Sequence record: PQ374922.1
Length of the DNA stretch: 64,000 nt
Reading direction: 5' to 3' (one strand)
DNA from: a phage
The translations under genes were made by a program, and so were the position numbers. Shown here one piece after another: positions 5,566 through 55,096 of the stretch; within the stretch, counting starts at the first letter, position 1; each line of letters begins with the position of its first letter. The notes beneath the pieces were generated by a model, which was given only the letters and a program-made list of their open reading frames with translations, ran no database searches and was not told the origin of the DNA.

Positions 5566-6312
5566 ATGGCATCCCTCCAAGATCTACGCAAGCTGAACGA
5601 CTTCGAAAACCGTCATTACACATTCCAGCAATACGAACTTCCTTACAAGGAACTGGAGTGTGTTACGACGGAGAATGGTCGTCATTACGTTTCACCGTCT
5701 GGTGTAAAACTGACATCCGTCACGACTATGCTGGGACGCACTGGAGATCATGAATGGCTTGAGTCTTGGAGGAAGAAGCTGGGCGCAGAGGCCGCTGACC
5801 TTGAGACCATGCGCTGTGCTGACCGAGGGGAGAAGCTGCACCTTGCGTGTGAACTGTATCTAAAGAACCGCCCAATGAAAGAAGTGTTGGAAGCGGCTGG
5901 CGAATACATGTTCATGTTCAAGCAGCTGTTCCCTTACCTGAACAAGATGACAAAGATCTATGCTCAGGAGATCCCATTATATAGCGAGGTGCTTGGTCTT
6001 GCAGGTCGTGTAGACCTTATCGGGGTTTATGAGGGTAAACCTGCTGTCATCGACTTCAAGACATCGAACACCATGAAGACGCGGGGCATGATCGAGGATT
6101 ACAGTATCCAGCTATGCTTATATTCGGTCATGTTCCAGCAGATGTTCGGCGTCAAGATCACCCGCCTCATCAACGTGATCGCCAACGAGTCTTCCCCTCT
6201 ACCAACCGTCATTGAGTTCAACCGTGATGACATTCTGACAAAGATGTTTGAGCGTGTTCGTCTGTATCATCGCATGGATAAAGAACAAAACGGAGTCTGG
6301 CCGGATCACTAA
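5566..6312 (+). CDS. PD-(D/E)xK family exonuclease (RecB/Cas4/lambda-exo-like)
   Basis: Motif GRVDLIGV...VIDFKTS (D...D/E.K core); AGGA RBS. Confidence 0.55.
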   Translation: MASLQDLRKLNDFENRHYTFQQYELPYKELECVTTENGRHYVSPSGVKLTSVTTMLGRTGDHEWLESWRKKLGAEAADLETMRCADRGEKLHLACELYLKNRPMKEVLEAAGEYMFMFKQLFPYLNKMTKIYAQEIPLYSEVLGLAGRVDLIGVYEGKPAVIDFKTSNTMKTRGMIEDYSIQLCLYSVMFQQMFGVKITRLINVIANESSPLPTVIEFNRDDILTKMFERVRLYHRMDKEQNGVWPDH

Positions 6313-6340
6313 ATACCCCATAATCCTTGGGAGATTTTGT

Positions 6341-7849
6341 ATGGTAGACATTCAGATTGTTAAGGTTAACGAAGTCCGCATGCGTTGCATCGCAGATCTT
6401 TCTATCAGGGAAGAACTTAATGACTACTTCAAATTCGAAGACCCGAACTTCGTTCCCAACCCCTTTTCTAAATGGGACGGGGTTGTCCGCCTATTTACCA
6501 AGTCATCTGGTCTAATCGATATCGGTCTGCTGTTTGAGGTATTTAAGTTCTGTAAGAACAACGGATACACCATTGAACTGGATCCGGCACTGAAGTACAT
6601 TCAGGACATCCCAGATGAAGAAATCCGTGACTTCATCGACAGTCTGCATCCAAAGATCCGCACCGAAAATCACGAATATATCGATGCCGAGACTCGTGAC
6701 TACCAGTACGACACCATCGCCAAGGCTATGCGTCAAACCAGATGCGTCTGTGAACTGGCTACGAGTGCCGGTAAGTCCTTTATTCTGTATGTCATGGCGC
6801 GGTACTACAGGCGGCGCAGAGAAGCTCTCGAAAGTCCTCTGAAGACGCTTATCGTGGTGCCGTCAATCCACCTAGTCACTCAGCTGTACGACAACTTCGA
6901 AGAGTATGCACATGGCAGTGATTGGAAGCCCGTTGTTAACACCCAGCTGATTTTTGAGGGCGCGACAAAGGATATCAGCAAACCAATCGTCATCAGTACA
7001 TGGCAAGGCATTCAAGACCAGCCGAAGGAATGGTTCCACCAGTTCGGTGATATCGTGGTGGATGAAGTGCACACCTCCAAGTCTGAGAAACTGTCTTACA
7101 TCCTAAACAACTGCATCTATGCCGACCAGCGCCTGGGGGTTACAGGTACGCTGGCGAATACCAAAGTTGCCGGGCTTCAGGTGGTGGCTCACTTCGGGGC
7201 GTACCATAAGATCATCACGGCTCGCGATCTTATCAATCTCGGGTACGCCACTGACATCAAAGTGAAGATGATCCAGCTGAAGCACACTCCGGCGGATGCT
7301 GTTGGTCTGGACGGGGATTATTCCAAGGAAATAGAATACCTTATCACACACCAGTCCCGCAACGAACTGATCGCCAAGATGGCACTGAATCTGAAAGGAA
7401 ACGTGGCCATCATGTTCGAACGTATTGATGGTCACATGATGGTCGTGTATGATATGCTGAGCGCGGTCAAGCCCAACGTGTTTGTCATCAACGGGGAAGT
7501 AAAGATCGAAGACCGCCGCCGCATACAGAAAGCGATGGAGGATGGAGAGGACATCACCCTGTTGGCATCATACGGGACAATGCAGCAGGGAGTGTCGATC
7601 AAGAAGCTACACCACCTTGTACTGGCACACCCGAGCAAGTCATATATCCGCGTCATACAGACATTGGGTCGTCTGATGCGTCAGCACTCCTCTAAGGACG
7701 TCGCGTGGATATGGGACTTAGTGGATGATGCATCGTACAACGCCAGCACGAACCACGCTCTTAGGCACTCTCACGAGCGTTACAAGTTTTACCTGGCAGA
7801 GCGCCACCCTGTGGAGTTCATGAAGGTGGCGCTGGGTAATCACGATTAA
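6341..7849 (+). CDS. uvsW: SF2 DNA helicase, UvsW-like
   Basis: Walker A ATSAGKS, DEVH box, helicase C-terminal motifs; start at internal ATG with GGGAGA RBS (ORF track starts at 6248). Confidence 0.7.
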   Translation: MVDIQIVKVNEVRMRCIADLSIREELNDYFKFEDPNFVPNPFSKWDGVVRLFTKSSGLIDIGLLFEVFKFCKNNGYTIELDPALKYIQDIPDEEIRDFIDSLHPKIRTENHEYIDAETRDYQYDTIAKAMRQTRCVCELATSAGKSFILYVMARYYRRRREALESPLKTLIVVPSIHLVTQLYDNFEEYAHGSDWKPVVNTQLIFEGATKDISKPIVISTWQGIQDQPKEWFHQFGDIVVDEVHTSKSEKLSYILNNCIYADQRLGVTGTLANTKVAGLQVVAHFGAYHKIITARDLINLGYATDIKVKMIQLKHTPADAVGLDGDYSKEIEYLITHQSRNELIAKMALNLKGNVAIMFERIDGHMMVVYDMLSAVKPNVFVINGEVKIEDRRRIQKAMEDGEDITLLASYGTMQQGVSIKKLHHLVLAHPSKSYIRVIQTLGRLMRQHSSKDVAWIWDLVDDASYNASTNHALRHSHERYKFYLAERHPVEFMKVALGNHD

Positions 7850-8217
7850 TCTTGATTCACATAGGCGGGGGTGGCCTCGCCTTCATCAGTTACTACACCG
7901 AACAATTTGTCCAGAGAAGCCAGACATTGTGCGTTCAGGTGTTCACTGATCGTATCCTTCAGCATTTGTTCGCTGTTCAATTGGAATGGCAGAACCTTCG
8001 CTTCGATGCCGTTATCAAACGTCACAACGCCAACATACAGACCAACTTTCAGGCCTGTCATCAAGCCAAGGGGGACAAATCGCGGCTCCGATGGTAAGTT
8101 CTTGTCTGACGCCAGCTGTGTCAGATAAACTGGGGTGCCTGTGATAAATTGACCTGTGGTGAGGTTGGCGTCTGGCTTACTACACCCGACTGCGTATAAT
8201 CCTACGAACTGTTTCAT
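7846..8217 (-). CDS. hypothetical small protein, possible lipoprotein
   Basis: Minus-strand ORF with GAGAG RBS; N-terminus MKQFVGLYAVGC resembles a short lipobox; convergent with uvsW. Confidence 0.45.
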   Translation of the reverse strand: MKQFVGLYAVGCSKPDANLTTGQFITGTPVYLTQLASDKNLPSEPRFVPLGLMTGLKVGLYVGVVTFDNGIEAKVLPFQLNSEQMLKDTISEHLNAQCLASLDKLFGVVTDEGEATPAYVNQD

Positions 8218-8380
8218 ATATTACTCTCGTGTGTTGGTTAACATGACATACATATTATTTCGCGTGCATGTTTAGACCAAATAAATTATTTTTGTTGTTG
8301 AATAAAAACTGCTTTCTTGTTGAACAATGGCGTGGTATTATACGAGTTGTGAGCGTTAGCGAACAACGAGTATTTGTTTT

Positions 8381-8400
8381 ATGAGCGAAGCGAATAGGAT
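8381..8400. repeat. 20-mer atgagcgaagcgaataggat (copy 1), preceded by 12-mer tatttgttttat
   Basis: Exact reverse complement present at 53886-53905; 12-mer tatttgttttat also shared (8371-8382 and 53871-53882). Confidence 0.85.
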
Positions 8401-8408
8401 TAATAAAA

Positions 8409-8443
8409 GTTATTATCTTTAATAAGGTTATTATCTTTAATAA
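8409..8443. repeat. tandem direct repeat, 17-bp unit gttattatctttaataa x2
   Basis: Two identical 17-mers separated by 1 nt in the 360-bp intergenic region upstream of the clamp gene. Confidence 0.85.
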
Positions 8444-8449
8444 AGTCCA

Positions 8450-8470
8450 TAAATGCCGAAGGCATTTATT
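8450..8470. repeat. inverted repeat ataaatgcc-gaa-ggcatttat
   Basis: 9-bp perfect stem next to the tandem repeats. Confidence 0.7.
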
Positions 8471-8577
8471 AATAACGCGTAGCGCAATTTGCCACTTGTT
8501 CTATAAGCAAAACACAGCGATACTAGATTTCGTCAAACATGACTTGAACCACCACTATATTTTGAGGATACATACAA

Positions 8578-9246
8578 ATGCAAGAGATCACTCTCTCCGA
8601 ACGTACACTTCAGTTGCTGGCCAACTTTGAGACCATCAACCCATCTATCGTTCTGACACCGGGCAAGATGCTGCGCAGTATTAATGATTCTTCTACTGTG
8701 ATCGCCGTGGCGCAGATCGAAGAAGACTTCCCGTTTGAGTTCCCGATTCTGGACCTGACCAAACTTCTGGCCATCCAGCGCCTACCTTCCTTCAAAGGTG
8801 CCAAAGCCGAATTCCATCAGGACTACATCCTGTTGAAAGGTGAAAGTTCTCAGCTGCAATTCTGGCGTTCTGCTAAAGAACTCACGGTTGTCCCGGCTGA
8901 TACTATCGAACTGCCGTCTGTTGACTTTGAAGCGATCATCACTCCAGAGAAGATGAAAGAACTGACCCGCGCCTGTTCTACCCTCGGACATAAGACTGTG
9001 CGCCTGGTTGCTCAGGGTGGCAAAACTCGCCTGGTTGCAACCACCACTACCCTGGACAACTCCAACAACTACACTGTTGAGCTGGGTGAAACCGCGCTGC
9101 CGGACTTCGTAATGCCGCTGGATGTTGCCAACCTGAAAATGATCGAAGGCAACTACACTCTGCGTGCCTGTGCTGATCTACAGATGGTGAACTTCCAATC
9201 ATCCGACGCGACGATCAATTACTTCGTCGGCGCACAGATTGAGTAA
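8578..9246 (+). CDS. sliding clamp, T4 gp45-like
   Basis: 222 aa, E. coli-optimal codon usage, immediately upstream of clamp-loader ATPase; order 45-44-62-regA as in T4. Confidence 0.8.
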   Translation: MQEITLSERTLQLLANFETINPSIVLTPGKMLRSINDSSTVIAVAQIEEDFPFEFPILDLTKLLAIQRLPSFKGAKAEFHQDYILLKGESSQLQFWRSAKELTVVPADTIELPSVDFEAIITPEKMKELTRACSTLGHKTVRLVAQGGKTRLVATTTTLDNSNNYTVELGETALPDFVMPLDVANLKMIEGNYTLRACADLQMVNFQSSDATINYFVGAQIE

Positions 9247-23107: not shown

Positions 23108-23123
23108 ACCAAGAGACTATATC

Positions 23124-23498
23124 ATGAAAAAGTTAATCCTCGCTGTTGCCCTGCTGGGCGCTTCCTTTGCTGCTGTTTCCGCCCCTCCTGTCATCACCGG
23201 AGTGTCTACCAACGGTGTTTATGCTTTCAAGGCGTATGGCCAAGACCTCGTTCTGTATAAGAACGGGAAGATGATTGAGCGCTGCGTATCAGACGACGTG
23301 AATCGTGGGATCGACAATCAGGGCAGCCCATACGTCCTGGACATCTATTCCTGCTCTAACGGGACGAAGTCCTTTGGCGTCAAGACCTTTGGCAACGTCG
23401 CCGACGGTGGCTGGGGCTTCATGTTCGAAACCCGCAACCACCACCCGGTCAAGACCATGCAAGAAGAGTTCTTGATCTCTGTCGGGGGTACGTTATGA
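23124..23498 (+). CDS. secreted protein with signal peptide (124 aa)
   Basis: N-terminus MKKLILAVALLGASFAAVSA; conserved ctatatcATG start context. Confidence 0.55.
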   Translation: MKKLILAVALLGASFAAVSAPPVITGVSTNGVYAFKAYGQDLVLYKNGKMIERCVSDDVNRGIDNQGSPYVLDIYSCSNGTKSFGVKTFGNVADGGWGFMFETRNHHPVKTMQEEFLISVGGTL

Positions 23499-26422: not shown

Positions 26423-26478
26423 TCAATAACCTCGGGCGGCTTATCATAAAGCTGCCCTTTCATTTGAGTGACTATATC

Positions 26479-26940
26479 ATGGAAAAACTTTATTCTATTA
26501 TCGTCGGTCCTGATCCTGACGGATTATTCTTCGCCCCGTTGTCTTATATTGCCCACGCCCGTATCGGTAGCCATTACGCATATTGCACACGTGGCCACGA
26601 CGGTTCCAATATCCTCCATTATAGCCGCCTGAACGATTTCCTGGCACTTCAACCAGAAGATGTTGTGTTGGCGCGTCGCGTGTTCATCGACTTCAACGCG
26701 ATGCACAACAACGAAATCGACGCTCGCTATCATGCCATGCGTTCTATGGAAGGGGGAGACTGCATTTATCGTATCGACCATTTTAGTGAGTTTACCCAAT
26801 CTATTGATTGGTTCGTTTCAGAAAAGACGTTGGGTGAAAGAATCGTCACAACTCCGTGGGCACATGCGGACAACTTCGTGTGTCTACCGATGCGTACAAA
26901 GAAGTCGACAATCTGTGCAACAAGTTCCGCATCTCGGTGA
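26479..26940 (+). CDS. hypothetical protein (153 aa)
   Basis: ATG in conserved gactatatcATG context. Confidence 0.5.
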   Translation: MEKLYSIIVGPDPDGLFFAPLSYIAHARIGSHYAYCTRGHDGSNILHYSRLNDFLALQPEDVVLARRVFIDFNAMHNNEIDARYHAMRSMEGGDCIYRIDHFSEFTQSIDWFVSEKTLGERIVTTPWAHADNFVCLPMRTKKSTICATSSASR

Positions 26941-37571: not shown

Positions 37572-37624
37572 AAATAATTCAATAAAAGGGGCTTTCGCCC
37601 CTTTACTTCTTCAATATCCTTCCC

Positions 37625-37645
37625 TATACTTCATTCCATAAGCAG
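37625..37645 (+). repeat. exact 21-mer tatacttcattccataagcag (copy 2)
   Basis: Identical to 1970-1990. Confidence 0.8.
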
Positions 37646-37678
37646 TACGACACCAACTTGAATAGCAGGAACTATATC

Positions 37679-38014
37679 ATGACACAACTCAAGAACTTCA
37701 CCGCCGATGACATGTTTGCCTTCCAGGGTGCTGAGCACTTTGCTGACGGCTCTGTACCTCGCATCTACTACTTCTCCGACGAAGAGATGGAAGCGTTCTT
37801 CGACCTGATGGAAAAGGACTACGAATCGAGCGACTTCGTTTATATCATCCATCACGCTGAAGGACTGACCTTGGGTTGGACGGCCAACAACGAACCAGAA
37901 GAAGTAAACTTCCCTGAAGGTATCATGTCAGAGCGCGTCGAATATCTACTGGAAGCCCTGGACCCCCACACCCTCCCGCTCTGGGCGATGTCTGTAGCCC
38001 AAGTTCAAAAATAA
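37679..38014 (+). CDS. hypothetical acidic protein (111 aa)
   Basis: Conserved ctatatcATG start context. Confidence 0.5.
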   Translation: MTQLKNFTADDMFAFQGAEHFADGSVPRIYYFSDEEMEAFFDLMEKDYESSDFVYIIHHAEGLTLGWTANNEPEEVNFPEGIMSERVEYLLEALDPHTLPLWAMSVAQVQK

Positions 38015-50833: not shown

Positions 50834-50898
50834 CCCTGCGCTTATACTTCCCAGTAATTCATTGGCATTCGCCACAAATTGAAAGCGGGAACTATATC

Positions 50899-51360
50899 AT
50901 GACAAACAAAGTACTCACCAACCCACTGCACAACTTCGGTTACATTCAACTCCCTCTGGTGATCGACACCCTGTACGCCGACGACAAAGAAGAGATCTGC
51001 TGGTCACCCACCGCACTGATTGAACGCGAAATCTTCAAGTCTGTTGTTGATGTCATGTTCCGTATCGGTCGCAATGGACCTCTGGTCTACCTCGGCAAGG
51101 TGACTGAGTTGAAGACAAGCCACAACGAACGCTTCCTTCGTATCGATACAACGGGGTGCTCTCATCAGGACTTCAACACATTGCGCAATTATGTTCTGGT
51201 CAACCGCCCGGTCAGTCAACACCGCCCGTATCTGACTTCAATGCACATCGACAATTTCATCACCGACGTACACCTCCGCGCCGAAACCCTCCATGAAGAG
51301 GAAACAGGCCGAGCTATCGACACAGTCTTAAATATGGTTGTGATCACCCTGGCGGAGTAG
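50899..51360 (+). CDS. hypothetical protein (153 aa)
   Basis: Conserved gaactatatcATG start context. Confidence 0.5.
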   Translation: MTNKVLTNPLHNFGYIQLPLVIDTLYADDKEEICWSPTALIEREIFKSVVDVMFRIGRNGPLVYLGKVTELKTSHNERFLRIDTTGCSHQDFNTLRNYVLVNRPVSQHRPYLTSMHIDNFITDVHLRAETLHEEETGRAIDTVLNMVVITLAE

Positions 51361-52166: not shown

Positions 52167-53777
52167 TTACTCTTTGGTGCCGAAATTACCACCATTGTCT
52201 TTTAATTCTGCCTTGATGTCAATCTCACCCGGACCCGTAGGGGATGCAGGGGTTGCACCTGACAGAGAAGAAGCACGACCAGCACCTTCGGCATATATGA
52301 TGTTACCATTGATCGTCTGAGCGACAGTCAGTTTGTCAGCGATGATCTCAGTCGTTAGAATCTTAGGAACCTTCAATGTCCCACCGACCTCCAGAGTCTC
52401 GCAGATAATGCGCAGAATATTCTGCGCTTGCATTTCCGCTAGGTCACTGAATTTCATCAGCGCTGTGCCCGCAACCACATTTGAGTAGTTGTTGGAATGC
52501 AAATGATAGACCTCACCTGTCTTGCGCTGGACTTCAGTTCCTTTGACCGTCAGGTTGTGGTCCCCGCCGACATAATAACGCTTGTTGAACATCGTCAGGT
52601 CATAGTGGTCTTTGACGGACTTGTTGACCACATCACCATCCGGCAACATTTGCTTGTAAGACCCAGACTTATGCATCCAATGAAGACGTTCACCACCAGG
52701 GGTGTCATCCACTTCCATAATATGCCCAGCTCGGGACACCATGACGTTATTGTACGGGTATTTAGATCCACCCGCAGCCGGAACCATGGTTTCTCCAGTG
52801 TTGTCAATATCCTGTACTCGCCCAGTAGGAGCCGGAGTCGGTTGTTCCTTTGGAGTACGATCTGGGATAGGTTCTGACCATTTACCATTCTGCTGCGCAG
52901 GCGCGGCTGTGGCTGTGTTAGCAGGACCAGGCCAACGATATCCCAAGACCGAAGAACGTCTGAAACGACTGACCTTCACTGAATCGGATTGGTTGCCACC
53001 AATACACCAGACATAGTTTGCATCGAACTTCTGCACAAACGCTACGTGTCCAAATGTAGGGTTGTTACCACGCCGGAAGACTACGATAGCGCCATATTGT
53101 GGTGCTGACAGTGGAGTGCCCCATGTAAGGTAAGATCGGGCAAGAGCGGAGCGTGTAGACGTGTATCCAGCCTGTATCATAACCCAACCCACGAACGCCG
53201 CACACCACGACACTTCATCTTCAGAAGCACCAAGGGAGGTTGTCTTGTGATATTCTATAATGCGCGGGTTGTTGTTGAACTTTCCGGCATACTCCTTGAT
53301 ACCTAATTCGCCACGAGCGATTGTCATCCACTTCTCTGGATCATACCCACCAACAGGTGGTTGTGGATCTGGTTGTGGTTCGTCTTCTTGTTTCACAGGA
53401 ACGTCAGTGACGGCGTTGTACGCCTGACGTTCCACAGATTGAACGACCTGCCCGAGAGCCAGTGGGTTTGTGTCGGCACCATCAGTAGGACTTGAACCAG
53501 TCCAAGTCCAGGTGATGCGTAAATTCTGGTATGCTTCGTCAAGGGCGAACCCCATAACCTCAGTGCCAGGAATGATACCCGTTGGAGACCAACCTAAACC
53601 AGCAGAGGAGGCGTTAGAAGCAGGCATCAGTACCTTCGCCCATGGGAGTTTGTCCGTAGGCAGGAGGACGGGATCGTCGGTGTGTACGCCATATATGCGA
53701 ACAGCAACTCGCCCATTTTGGTCTGGATCGTTGACATCTTCAACGGTGCCGTAAAACCATCTCATATTGTCTAACAT
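52167..53777 (-). CDS. baseplate central hub/spike protein, gp5-like, with CHAP peptidase domain
   Basis: N-terminus MRWFYGTVEDVNDP like T4 gp5 OB domain; Cys/His CHAP signature SWCAAFVGW...FGHVAFV; CATAAATA late-promoter-like element upstream. Confidence 0.6.
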   Translation of the reverse strand: MLDNMRWFYGTVEDVNDPDQNGRVAVRIYGVHTDDPVLLPTDKLPWAKVLMPASNASSAGLGWSPTGIIPGTEVMGFALDEAYQNLRITWTWTGSSPTDGADTNPLALGQVVQSVERQAYNAVTDVPVKQEDEPQPDPQPPVGGYDPEKWMTIARGELGIKEYAGKFNNNPRIIEYHKTTSLGASEDEVSWCAAFVGWVMIQAGYTSTRSALARSYLTWGTPLSAPQYGAIVVFRRGNNPTFGHVAFVQKFDANYVWCIGGNQSDSVKVSRFRRSSVLGYRWPGPANTATAAPAQQNGKWSEPIPDRTPKEQPTPAPTGRVQDIDNTGETMVPAAGGSKYPYNNVMVSRAGHIMEVDDTPGGERLHWMHKSGSYKQMLPDGDVVNKSVKDHYDLTMFNKRYYVGGDHNLTVKGTEVQRKTGEVYHLHSNNYSNVVAGTALMKFSDLAEMQAQNILRIICETLEVGGTLKVPKILTTEIIADKLTVAQTINGNIIYAEGAGRASSLSGATPASPTGPGEIDIKAELKDNGGNFGTKE

Positions 53778-53811: not shown

Positions 53812-53819
53812 TATTTATG
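53812..53819 (-). promoter_or_regulatory. late-promoter-like CATAAATA upstream of gp5-like gene
   Basis: 7/8 match to TATAAATA on minus strand, 35-42 nt upstream of ATG at 53777. Confidence 0.4.
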
Positions 53820-53885
53820 CGCAGCTGTTTTTGCCTTATATACTATAGGAAGCTCTGCTTCCGTTCATTTTATTTGTTTTATTCG

Positions 53886-53905
53886 ATCCTATTCGCTTCG
53901 CTCAT
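53886..53905. repeat. 20-mer copy 2 (inverted orientation)
   Basis: atcctattcgcttcgctcat is the reverse complement of 8381-8400. Confidence 0.85.
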
Positions 53906-54112
53906 CAAACCGCCCTATGCGGGCAGCACCATTCCAATGCCATGGAGGCATAAGGGCGAGGCAATAACTGTACACCCCAGAACACTCCTTGAAAAATGGT
54001 ATTTTACTGACAATCTGATTCAAAACAGACAAACACCAACAAATGACTCGGGAACAAGCCCATTATAGCAATTTCAGGTAAAGAGAGTGCGTGTTAACCG
54101 ATTTTACAGTTA

Positions 54113-54141
54113 AGCCAATAAAAATCCCGCCGAAGCGGGAT
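54113..54141 (-). terminator. rho-independent terminator for minus-strand gene 54290-55096
   Basis: atcccgc-cgaa-gcgggat with A-run on + strand (T-run on - strand). Confidence 0.6.
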
Positions 54142-54289
54142 TACTGTTTCTTAGACAACCTGACCTTGAGGGCTTCGGTTAACAAGTCAAGATGCCATGG
54201 CATCGACTCGTTGATTTCAAATATGCTATAGCCGTGTAACTTCAATTCATCACACATCACGAAGTAGGATAATAAATCAGTTTCAAACA

Positions 54290-55096
54290 TTAAATGAAAA
54301 TTTCATTAATACTATTGAATTCGATTTTGTGCTCCTTACCACATTTCGGACACTTGATCGAACTCTTGTAGTGGATGCGCGGTATTTTGTGGAAGAAGTT
54401 CTTCGTAATGCTGTCAATAACATCTGATTCGATGTTATCCTTCACCCACTCAACAAACGCTTCTTTCACACGGCGGCGCTCAGTAGCCTCTTCCGGAGTG
54501 ATTCCGATTTCTTCAGGATTCTCAACCTTCCACACCTGACCGTCATCATCGTACAGACAGTCGATAAAGGTGGCCAGCATCATCTCAACGCTTGCAGCAT
54601 CAGACAGTGCCGTAGCGTCCGAGAAGGAAGGTTGGCGCATCTTGAGGTGATATCCACCTGGCAGGTCAAACGTCTCCCGGAAGCCGTCCTGAGCAATGCA
54701 TTTGACGTTGTTCAACGGGATAGGTAGAGTCAGTTCCTGCTCACAGGGAGCTATCTGGTGCTTTTCTTGACCATCTCCCAGATCGATCGTTTCTTCAATC
54801 TGATTATTGCACTTATAGCGAATCTTCATCAATTCACCGATGGAGATCATGCGCATGCGGATGAACACTTCCTCAACAACGCCGATTGGCAGTTTACTGA
54901 AAGGTGCACCTGCATTTACACATTCGCTAAAGAGACTCTCCATCATGGCTGCGCGTTCTTCAATCGGCGTTTGCGGATCTGACACCTGAAGTAACAAAGT
55001 TTGTTGCCCCGCAGTAAAGGCGCGATATTTGATCACAGTAGGCCAAAAGTCGCTTTTATATGTCTTTTCTGTTCTGGGCAATGATGGTAAATTCAT
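54290..55096 (-). CDS. hypothetical protein with C-terminal zinc ribbon, possibly baseplate-associated
   Basis: GGAGATACATT-ATG RBS; CPKCGKEHK; AT-rich codon usage; followed by minus-strand terminator. Confidence 0.5.
   Translation of the reverse strand: MNLPSLPRTEKTYKSDFWPTVIKYRAFTAGQQTLLLQVSDPQTPIEERAAMMESLFSECVNAGAPFSKLPIGVVEEVFIRMRMISIGELMKIRYKCNNQIEETIDLGDGQEKHQIAPCEQELTLPIPLNNVKCIAQDGFRETFDLPGGYHLKMRQPSFSDATALSDAASVEMMLATFIDCLYDDDGQVWKVENPEEIGITPEEATERRRVKEAFVEWVKDNIESDVIDSITKNFFHKIPRIHYKSSIKCPKCGKEHKIEFNSINEIFI

Follow-up and report, generated by a model that had tools for sequence, protein, structure and literature searches.

The stretch of phage DNA analyzed here (64,000 nucleotides (nt), record PQ374922.1; the whole stretch is called the window below) carries the 20-mer ATGAGCGAAGCGAATAGGAT exactly at 8381-8400 on the plus strand, upstream of the sliding-clamp gene gp45, and at 53886-53905 on the minus strand, upstream of the baseplate gene gp5. 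The 20-mer holds hairpin C of three paralogous structured non-coding elements, which probably act as RNA and are directed toward the genes of the clamp gp45, the hub protein gp5 and the wedge protein gp6. The elements are paralogous, occur three times per genome, are conserved across genera, and carry a structure that belongs to the strand sense to the downstream gene.

Alignments reveal a modular layout, with modules A, B and C at the gp6 locus (site 3), A and C at the clamp locus (site 1), and B and C at the gp5 locus (site 2); hairpin C is the sole module found at all three. It has the general form AY-GA-GC-loop-GC-GA-RU, with A:U and Y:R pairs at the base, an invariant tandem G.A/A.G above them, a G:C pair next and a variable apex, and the 20-mer consists of hairpin C followed by AGGAU. 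The modules that lie within the window are the following.

8340-8373, plus strand: hairpin A, AUAC-GA-GUUGU-GA-GC-GUUA-GC-GA-ACAAC-GA-GUAU, in which two tandem G.A motifs are invariant
8381-8400, plus strand: the 20-mer at site 1, composed of hairpin C, AU-GA-GC-GAA-GC-GA-AU (8381-8395), and then AGGAU
53951-53909, minus strand: module B, composed of hairpin B1 (53951-53937), an H-type pseudoknot and hairpin B2 (53927-53909)
53886-53905, minus strand: the 20-mer at site 2, composed of hairpin C (53905-53891) and then AGGAU

In the pseudoknot of module B, the B1 loop CCAU (53945-53942) pairs with AUGG (53932-53929). At site 1 of the window lineage, GUUUUAU (8376-8382) pairs with AUAGGAU (8394-8400). 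A first-pass annotation, made from the letters of the window, had noted a degenerate copy of the 20-mer at 8351-8366; this copy is real and corresponds to the apical part of hairpin A, which has the same design as hairpin C. Mimicry of CRISPR repeats by hairpin B2 was considered but is a weak candidate, suggested by a resemblance to the CUGCC...GGCAG hairpin of type I-F repeats.

Covariation and Strand Assignment

The structure was evaluated on 18 distinct sequences for modules B and C and on 10 distinct sequences for hairpin A, each cell of the comparison being one pair position in one sequence. For modules B and C, standard pairs are present in 342 of 342 cells and six pairs show double changes, of which two lie in B1, one in the pseudoknot and two in B2. 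The covariation score is 0.306, compared with 0.138 in shuffles, and none of 500 shuffles reaches it; slid controls are paired in 24-53% of cells. Hairpin A is paired in all 110 cells, with double changes in four pairs and a covariation score of 0.354 (0.159 in shuffles), bringing the pairs with double changes to ten over A, B and C. Within hairpin C, the second pair is U:A at sites 1 and 2 of the Aglimvirinae and C:G elsewhere, and the loop varies from 3 to 18 nt (GAA, GUA, AAC, AUA, UUCA, and versions of 13 and 18 nt), the insert of the 18-nt version lengthening the helix coaxially. In every tandem G.A, by contrast with the loops, the G and the A are invariant.

Conserved G.U wobbles are present in both the A and the B-C structures, and because of them the structure is assigned to the strand sense to the downstream gene. 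On the antisense strand the G.U pairs and tandem G.A motifs turn into C.A and pyrimidine-pyrimidine mismatches, and folding is therefore weaker or absent. Indeed, the 25-mer around the shared sequence folds as RNA with -3.7 kcal/mol in the sense and 0 in the antisense direction, and hairpin A with -12.3 kcal/mol (z-score -4.8) as opposed to -7.2 kcal/mol, which is 5 kcal/mol weaker. The elements taken whole also fold more stably than shuffles, at z-scores of -2.2 to -3.2.

The first-pass annotation had interpreted the repeated 20-mer as a protein-binding or promoter element or a recombination site. The repeat is indeed not due to chance, it is selected, and recombination is involved, but a double-stranded protein-binding or promoter site is unsupported, because the changes compensate within one strand, insertions and deletions occur only in the hairpin loop, and only the sense strand folds. 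These data favor a hairpin in RNA (or in another single strand) over a double-stranded DNA site or promoter. That the 20-mer is an operator or part of a promoter in duplex DNA, for example a T4-type middle promoter on the opposite strand as in LIMEstone1, appears quite improbable. The intergenic setting is promoter-rich, AGCGA could form a direct repeat in GAGCGAAGCGA, and the LIMEstone1 record has a "putative middle promoter" across the 20-mer on the opposite strand; however, this annotation is an in silico consensus match, and the equivalent -10 sequence of the window, AAATAC, fails TAnnnT. Moreover, the insertions of 1-15 nt sit exactly in the loop of hairpin C, and there are only three copies per genome.

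Particular sites of this kind were also considered and rejected. The direct repeat AGCGA-AGCGA is broken by hairpin A variants (AGTG..AACG) that keep the pair, and with only three loci per genome the 20-mer is not a general promoter motif. The consensus used for a MotA middle promoter was (a/t)(a/t)(a/t)TGCTT(t/c)A centered at -30, with a TAnnnT -10 element 11-13 base pairs (bp) downstream; the opposite strand, GCTTCGCTCATAAAACAAATAC, is without a TGCTT box, has AAATAC as its -10 sequence, and its -10 linker varies between genera. A micro open reading frame (ORF) ATG AGC GAA GCG AAT AGG ("MSEANRI") was likewise rejected, as most lineages have ACG there and the downstream frames differ.

Genomic Context, Copy Number and Conservation

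The window phage belongs to the Aglimvirinae (Ackermannviridae) and is 98-99% identical to Escherichia phage YX22; its relatives include Ag3, SKML-39, LIMEstone1, Kuttervirus phages and Klebsiella phages of the genus Taipeivirus. The Ackermannviridae are the ViI-like phages, among them CBA120, LIMEstone and the Kuttervirus biocontrol phages. Site 1 is a 360-bp region that extends from a small divergent ORF (7846-8217, minus strand) to the sliding-clamp gene (8578, plus strand), while site 2 is a gap of ~360 bp on the minus strand, from a 49-amino-acid ORF and a terminator (54123-54142) to gp5 (start at 53777). The annotation of relatives confirms the first-pass assignment of the two genes, gp45 starting at 8578 (plus strand) and gp5 at 53777 (minus strand), and the 20-mer has, as had been stated, the same orientation relative to the downstream gene in both places. 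The description of the two intergenic regions as otherwise unrelated was wrong, in that the clamp and gp5 regions are paralogous. Around the 20-mer the similarity comprises 24 of 25 positions ungapped (8376-8400 against 53910-53886) and, with one gap, 31 of 34 (GTTT[T/G]ATGAGCGAAGCGAATAGGAT[T/CG]AATAAAA).

Further copies of the 20-mer itself were not found: the window holds no extra match at up to 3 mismatches, and even with 5 mismatches allowed, a scan of the window and of the complete YX22 genome gave the two copies only. BLAST of both regions against the complete YX22 genome nevertheless revealed the third paralogous locus, a divergent region upstream of gp6 (YX22 134,540-134,904) that lies outside the window and has 52 nt in common with the flank of site 2 (90% identity) and 28 nt with the flank of site 1 (93%). 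In a BLAST of the genome against itself, the repeat between sites 2 and 3 is the only non-coding one that emerged. Furthermore, two covariance models run on the YX22 genome and the window matched only the three loci, model R1 scoring 87 bits on module B at site 2 and model R2 finding hairpin A at the clamp and gp6 sites only. In IMG/VR, every genome has exactly two copies of module A and two of module B. A loose pattern for tandem-G.A hairpins is not enriched genome-wide, with 48 found and 60 in shuffles.

Each of the three regions is contained in ~270 phage records, spread over four genera and a Serratia phage; representatives of Agtrevirus, Limestonevirus, Kuttervirus, Taipeivirus and the Serratia phage were aligned, followed by the loci from IMG/VR. 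The gp45 loci of distant relatives (26-27% protein identity) are without hairpin A. Mimicry of a host sequence was considered, and no similarity was found in 5,426 complete Escherichia coli genomes. No inversion between the sites was seen, the relative orientation being the same in 13 of the 13 distinct phage genomes that occur in both match listings. In Rfam 15 nothing in the window reaches the gathering score, and the three regions, searched on both strands at E <=10, gave only chance-level matches; scans for tRNA and tmRNA returned nothing, and the window contains no tRNA.

A chance or neutral duplication without function, which the first-pass annotation had kept as its fallback, is scarcely credible. 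It would fit the presence of only two copies in the window and the lineage-specific match of an adjacent 12-mer, but it is contradicted by dinucleotide shuffles, in which 0 of 100 contain any match to ATGAGCGAAGCGAATAGGAT, and by the conservation of all three sites, compensatory changes included, in four genera. The adjacent 12-mer, TATTTGTTTTAT, had been reported beside both copies, and it is exact at both, on the plus strand each time, with 0.01 occurrences expected.

8371-8382, plus strand: 12-mer at site 1, which covers the 3' end of hairpin A and the U-rich linker and reaches 2 nt into hairpin C
53871-53882, plus strand: 12-mer at site 2, reading AUAAAACAAAUA on the sense (minus) strand, within the A-rich spacer after hairpin C

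Yet relative to the gene it lies on opposite sides of the 20-mer, 5' at site 1 and 3' (as complement) at site 2. LIMEstone1, CBA120 and Magnus differ in the sequence and length of the linker after hairpin A. The spacer that contains the 12-mer at site 2 is equally variable between genera, the 12-mer not being kept in P46FS4, LIMEstone1, CBA120 and Magnus, so that at both sites it is limited to the lineage of the window and YX22. Not being conserved beyond this lineage and being located on opposite sides of the hairpin, it was rejected as a part of the element, and its double occurrence remains a minor coincidence within the window's lineage.

Concerted Evolution of the Copies

The copies within a genome resemble each other in states that are specific to the lineage. 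In the Aglimvirinae, sites 1 and 2 have in common the derived U:A state together with AGGAU, while in Taipeivirus all three copies read GCGAGUUGA and sites 1 and 3 have the 24-nt stretch ACGAGCGAAGCGAGUUGAUUAAUA in common. The same double change in the pseudoknot is present in both B copies of Taipeivirus and in both of the Serratia phage. The gp6 site of YX22 is 94% identical to that of Kuttervirus except for the B2 segment, which equals that of its own gp5 site, whereas other Aglimvirinae have the Kuttervirus form of B2 at gp6. Because the paralogs have lineage-specific states in common, the simplest reading of the exact identity of the two 20-mer copies would be gene conversion between paralogs combined with purifying selection; co-selection by a common partner is the alternative. 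Reciprocal exchange between sites 1 and 2 was not found in the 13 relatives compared.

As a separate observation, ~160 Kuttervirus records match the YX22 region upstream of gp6 at 90-95% identity, compared with only 72-78% for the clamp and gp5 regions. These identities suggest an exchange between genera beside the tail-spike module.

Promoter-like Sequences and Downstream Parts

To our knowledge, no transcription program of the Ackermannviridae has been mapped experimentally, and the published promoters are pattern matches. The alignments contain the following candidate sequences around the elements.

8313-8341, plus strand: promoter-like layout upstream of site 1, TTTCTT, 17 nt and TATTAT (8336-8341) after TG(G), with an A-tract farther upstream, as read from alignments
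53967-53995, minus strand: putative second promoter-like layout at site 2, TTTTCA, 17 nt and TACAGT after TG, paralogous to those at sites 1 and 3
54062-54070, minus strand: putative extended -10-like TGCTATAAT, conserved in five genera in the alignment
8496-8524, plus strand: putative proximal promoter-like element of the clamp gene, TTGTTC, 17 nt and GATACT, from the alignment
53812-53819, minus strand: late-promoter-like CATAAATA, ~40 nt before the gp5 start (53777), conserved in five genera
53951-53958, minus strand: conserved leader CGCCCUUA within CCUCGCYYUUAUGCC, 5' of module B at the gp5 site
8409-8443, plus strand: A/U-rich spacer at site 1, with the 17-mer GTTATTATCTTTAATAA in tandem (8409-8425 and 8427-8443, spaced by 18 nt)
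8449-8469, plus strand: downstream hairpin T at site 1, palindromic AUAAAUGCC-GAA-GGCAUUUAU, its 5' arm resembling a late promoter, (C/T)ATAAATG
53848-53862, minus strand: downstream hairpin T at site 2, GGAAGC-AGA-GCUUCC
54123-54142, minus strand: intrinsic terminator, its loop being C(UUCG)G, which borders site 2 on the upstream side and ends the transcript of gp26 and the small ORF

In the alignments, an A-tract, TTTC, 16 nt and TG-TAnnnT form a common layout upstream of all three sites, and the -10-like hexamer (TAnTAT/TAYNNT) is found in all genera, with the T, the A and the final T kept in each. Proximal to the clamp gene, the blocks CACTTGTTCTATA and GCGATACTA (8490-8528) do not differ between any of the genera, unlike the 11-12 nt that separate them, and from this pattern the pair may be the clamp-gene promoter. 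CACTTGTTCTATA is longer than a -35 element requires, and we take it to resemble an rrn-type boxA (UGUUCU.UAA). The motif before gp5 and gp6 is of the late type YWAAATA; the position of CATAAATA is a putative late promoter in the LIMEstone1 annotation, and a late promoter has been proposed in published work for Ag3 gp5.

The leader of module B is boxA-like and reads exactly CGCUCUUA at the gp5 site of P46FS4 and LIMEstone1, CGCCCUUA in the window and CGCCUUUA in CBA120; the corresponding position at the gp6 site is UGCCCUU(C/U), and the clamp site has none. Since the window shows no enrichment of the boxA-like 8-mer, with 42 occurrences at up to 1 mismatch where 35 are expected, the likeness of CGCUCUUA and CGCCCUUA to the lambda boxA is a lead only. 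The tandem arrangement of GTTATTATCTTTAATAA is present in the lineage of the window and YX22, with a single copy in P46FS4 and LIMEstone1. A hairpin occupies the position of T at site 1 in all genera, its sequence differing in Taipeivirus, and at site 2 a compensatory change has turned the stem into GGAUGC...GCAUCC in Taipeivirus and the Serratia phage. A terminator scan finds the T hairpins to be terminator-like on the strand antisense to the genes only, the tails on the sense strand being A/U-mixed, while the position of the terminator at 54123-54142 is annotated as such in LIMEstone1 and Magnus.

This arrangement bears on a second reading, in which the three loci would be independent genes for small trans-acting RNAs of ~100-150 nt, each with its own promoter and ending at the downstream hairpin, and hairpin C would be a common protein-binding or stabilizing module. 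It fits the promoter-like layout upstream and the hairpin downstream at every site; the late-promoter-like motif between element and gene at the gp5 and gp6 sites means that the element need not join the mRNA, and in Kuttervirus site 3 ends in a terminator-like ACGC...GCGUUUUGAUU. However, the terminal hairpins are mostly without U-tails (UAUAGUAUAU, UAAUAACG), the 3' end of site 3 differs between genera, and a conserved single-stranded seed region is not evident. We regard such RNA genes as a minority possibility, to be kept beside the preferred reading of cis-placed elements directed toward gp45, gp5 and gp6.

Several points weigh against the preferred reading. A consensus promoter scan called none of the promoters proposed above, which, together with their start sites, were read solely from the alignments. 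The -10-like hexamer of site 1 coincides in part with the outer stem of hairpin A, so that one of the two, stem or promoter, cannot be real. Taken by itself, hairpin C is weak by nearest-neighbor energy, and the copy at site 2 does not fold as hairpin C in isolation; instead, in the minimum-energy fold of site 2, its 3' strand pairs with CUCGC of the conserved leader. The structure was derived from the same sequences that were used for its test, and the compensatory changes represent few independent events, several of which separate paralogs or whole genera. Moreover, the downstream hairpins are poor terminators that have no good U-tracts in most lineages, and for this reason termination or antitermination is a conjecture. 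Finally, the covariation would be expected equally from a hairpin in single-stranded DNA.

A hairpin of the last kind could mark an origin, a priming site or a recombination hot spot beside an A/T-rich region of unwinding. The GCGAAGC core is known as a very stable DNA mini-hairpin, and T4-type phages have several replication origins. An A/T-rich stretch follows hairpin C at all three sites, and the gene-conversion-like exchange between the copies would agree with recombination there. By contrast, the pseudoknotted multi-helix module B has G.U pairs typical of RNA, the orientation of the element is fixed relative to the downstream gene, and no rearrangement or inversion is seen in 13 relatives. 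Covariation cannot separate RNA from single-stranded DNA, and on the remaining evidence the DNA version is judged very improbable and the RNA version is retained below.

Comparison With Known Systems

The elements resemble the nutL and nutR sites of phage lambda in being short hairpins with few copies per genome, each preceded by a promoter-like region and followed by hairpins and genes, with copies that are inverted on the map and have the same orientation relative to transcription. In addition, the hairpins of the gp5 site come after a conserved pyrimidine-rich leader, CGCYYUUA, which in two relatives is exactly CGCUCUUA. However, boxB has a conserved 5-nt GNRA-like loop that is bound by N, an arginine-rich antiterminator, whereas the loop of hairpin C varies from 3 to 18 nt and its conservation resides in the tandem G.A of the stem, and the clamp site has no boxA-like motif, nor is this motif statistically enriched. 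We know of no Nus/N system in T4-related phages.

The putL and putR sites of HK022 are RNAs of ~70 nt with two stem-loops directly after the promoter, which modify RNA polymerase in cis and independently of protein. Like these, the elements are multi-helix modules that are paralogous within one genome, promoter-proximal and upstream of terminator-like hairpins, and their structure is conserved more than their loops. Unlike put, they have an H-type pseudoknot and tandem G.A motifs, show no similarity in sequence or model (no Rfam match at E <=10), and constitute a promoter-proximal multi-helix RNA that is as yet only predicted. A pseudoknot followed by an unstructured A/U-rich stretch is also found in the leader of T4 gene 32, where it nucleates cooperative binding of gp32. 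The likeness lies in an H-type pseudoknot with an adjoining A/U-rich stretch in a 5' leader of a T4-related phage; in contrast to that leader, the elements are separated from the start codons by 110-180 nt that contain further hairpins and promoter-like sites, occur in three copies of which none precedes gene 32, and lack the pseudoknot in the clamp copy.

The PeSL cassettes of T4-type phages are composites of a terminator stem-loop and, directly after it, a sigma-70 early promoter, and are short, numerous, situated in hyperplastic regions and flanking variable ORFs (PMC2839356, PMC4122927). Both they and the present elements are repeated intergenic sequences of promoter plus stem-loop that recombine with each other in T4-related genomes. 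The elements differ in that there are three per genome, next to conserved core genes (gp45, gp5, gp6) and in the same places in all genera, and in that they comprise more than 100 nt of structured sequence with covariation and are fixed family-wide. A PeSL-like arrangement, hairpin T followed by TTGTTC, 17 nt and GATACT at the clamp site, is a small part of the element, and its promoter is putative. Elsewhere in the window, an intergenic repeat of ~63 nt with ~85% identity is present at 1948-2010 and 37602-37663 (plus strand), with TTTA(A/C)T, 16-17 nt, TATACT and the conserved leader TCATTCCATAAGCAG, and the terminator hairpin GGGGCTTTCGCCCC (37588-37601) stands directly before the second copy; this pair looks like a terminator-promoter cassette of the PeSL type. 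A further repeated motif, RGRRACTATATCATG, ends at start codons (23112-23131, 26467-26486, 37667-37686 and 50887-50906; repeat families D1/D5) and appears to be a common translation-initiation region, not a promoter.

The gp5 copy (UGAUGA-GC-GAA-GC-GAA) is similar to stem II of the hammerhead ribozyme (core CUGANGA...GAAA), where a tandem G.A extends a short helix. The elements are, however, without a three-helix junction or a cleavage site and have no match in Rfam. The hammerhead reading of UGAUGAGC..GCGAA was rejected, as the core (equivalents of G5 and A14) is not conserved elsewhere (GUUACGAGC...GCGAGU; ACGAGC...GCGAGU in most copies).

Neighboring Genes and Record Annotations

The small ORFs flanking the sites match no Pfam family, and in PHROGs they hit only families of unknown function apart from a weak gp51-like match. 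The latter concerns the 49-amino-acid ORF between gp26 and site 2 (54141-54290, minus strand), for which the match is to the C-terminal portion of the PHROG family "baseplate hub assembly catalyst" (gp51-like, E 4e-4). Beside site 1, uvsW is a single unbroken ORF of 533 amino acids in the window (6248-7849), whereas in LIMEstone1 (87109-89703) it is split by an element annotated as intron I-LimI (a homing endonuclease).

Intergenic regions of ~350 bp that appear empty tend to be filled by annotators with spurious ORFs or to receive mis-set start codons. Several Kuttervirus and Klebsiella records contain small "hypothetical proteins" within the non-coding regions described here. In Klebsiella phage Magnus (MN045230 24635) the gp6 coding sequence is annotated as starting at a TTG directly after hairpin C (CGAAGCGAGTTG), while in all other genera gp6 starts farther downstream, at the conserved ATGGCYACRCAAACAG; the start codon in the Magnus record is probably mis-set. 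The gp6-upstream region of the Ackermannviridae is also found at 94% identity in the unannotated 111-kb record OR844942.1 ("Enterococcus phage Efm 3-10"), and a record labeled "Pseudomonas" is a further match; both are probably mislabeled or contaminated entries.

Possible Role of the Elements

The elements look like a phage RNA motif that has not been described before: no description was found in the literature on Ackermannviridae, LIMEstone and PeSLs, and broader searches were too unspecific. Their transcription, promoters, partner and regulatory outcome are proposed here from the arrangement of the sequence. In the favored model, hairpin C would be transcribed sense to the downstream gene from a sigma-70-type promoter-like region in each intergenic region, with hairpin A and/or module B in the 5' part of the transcript, and would be followed by the A/U-rich spacer, then one more hairpin and lastly the proximal promoter-like motif of the gene itself. 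Because no other module is common to all three sites and what stays invariant in hairpin C is a platform of tandem G.A pairs, this hairpin may dock one common trans-acting factor, which could be an RNA-binding protein of phage or host or RNA polymerase itself. The docked factor would then set the fate of the leader, either by read-through of the downstream hairpin or by stabilizing the leader, comparable to the nut and put sites of lambdoid phages.

A stronger version of this model, in which the G.A hairpin together with the boxA-like leader and pseudoknot at two of the sites recruits one factor (an RNA-binding protein, a Nus factor or RNA polymerase) and constitutes an RNA control system new for T4-related phages, is speculative and rather unlikely. 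If it is true, a system of three elements would couple or time the expression of the clamp and baseplate operons by antitermination or leader stabilization, and gene conversion would keep the copies matched to their partner. A structured RNA motif that is present family-wide in three copies, before the sliding clamp and two baseplate operons, would offer a handle on the timing and regulation of expression in these phages, and would illustrate clearly how short regulatory paralogs evolve in concert within one phage genome.

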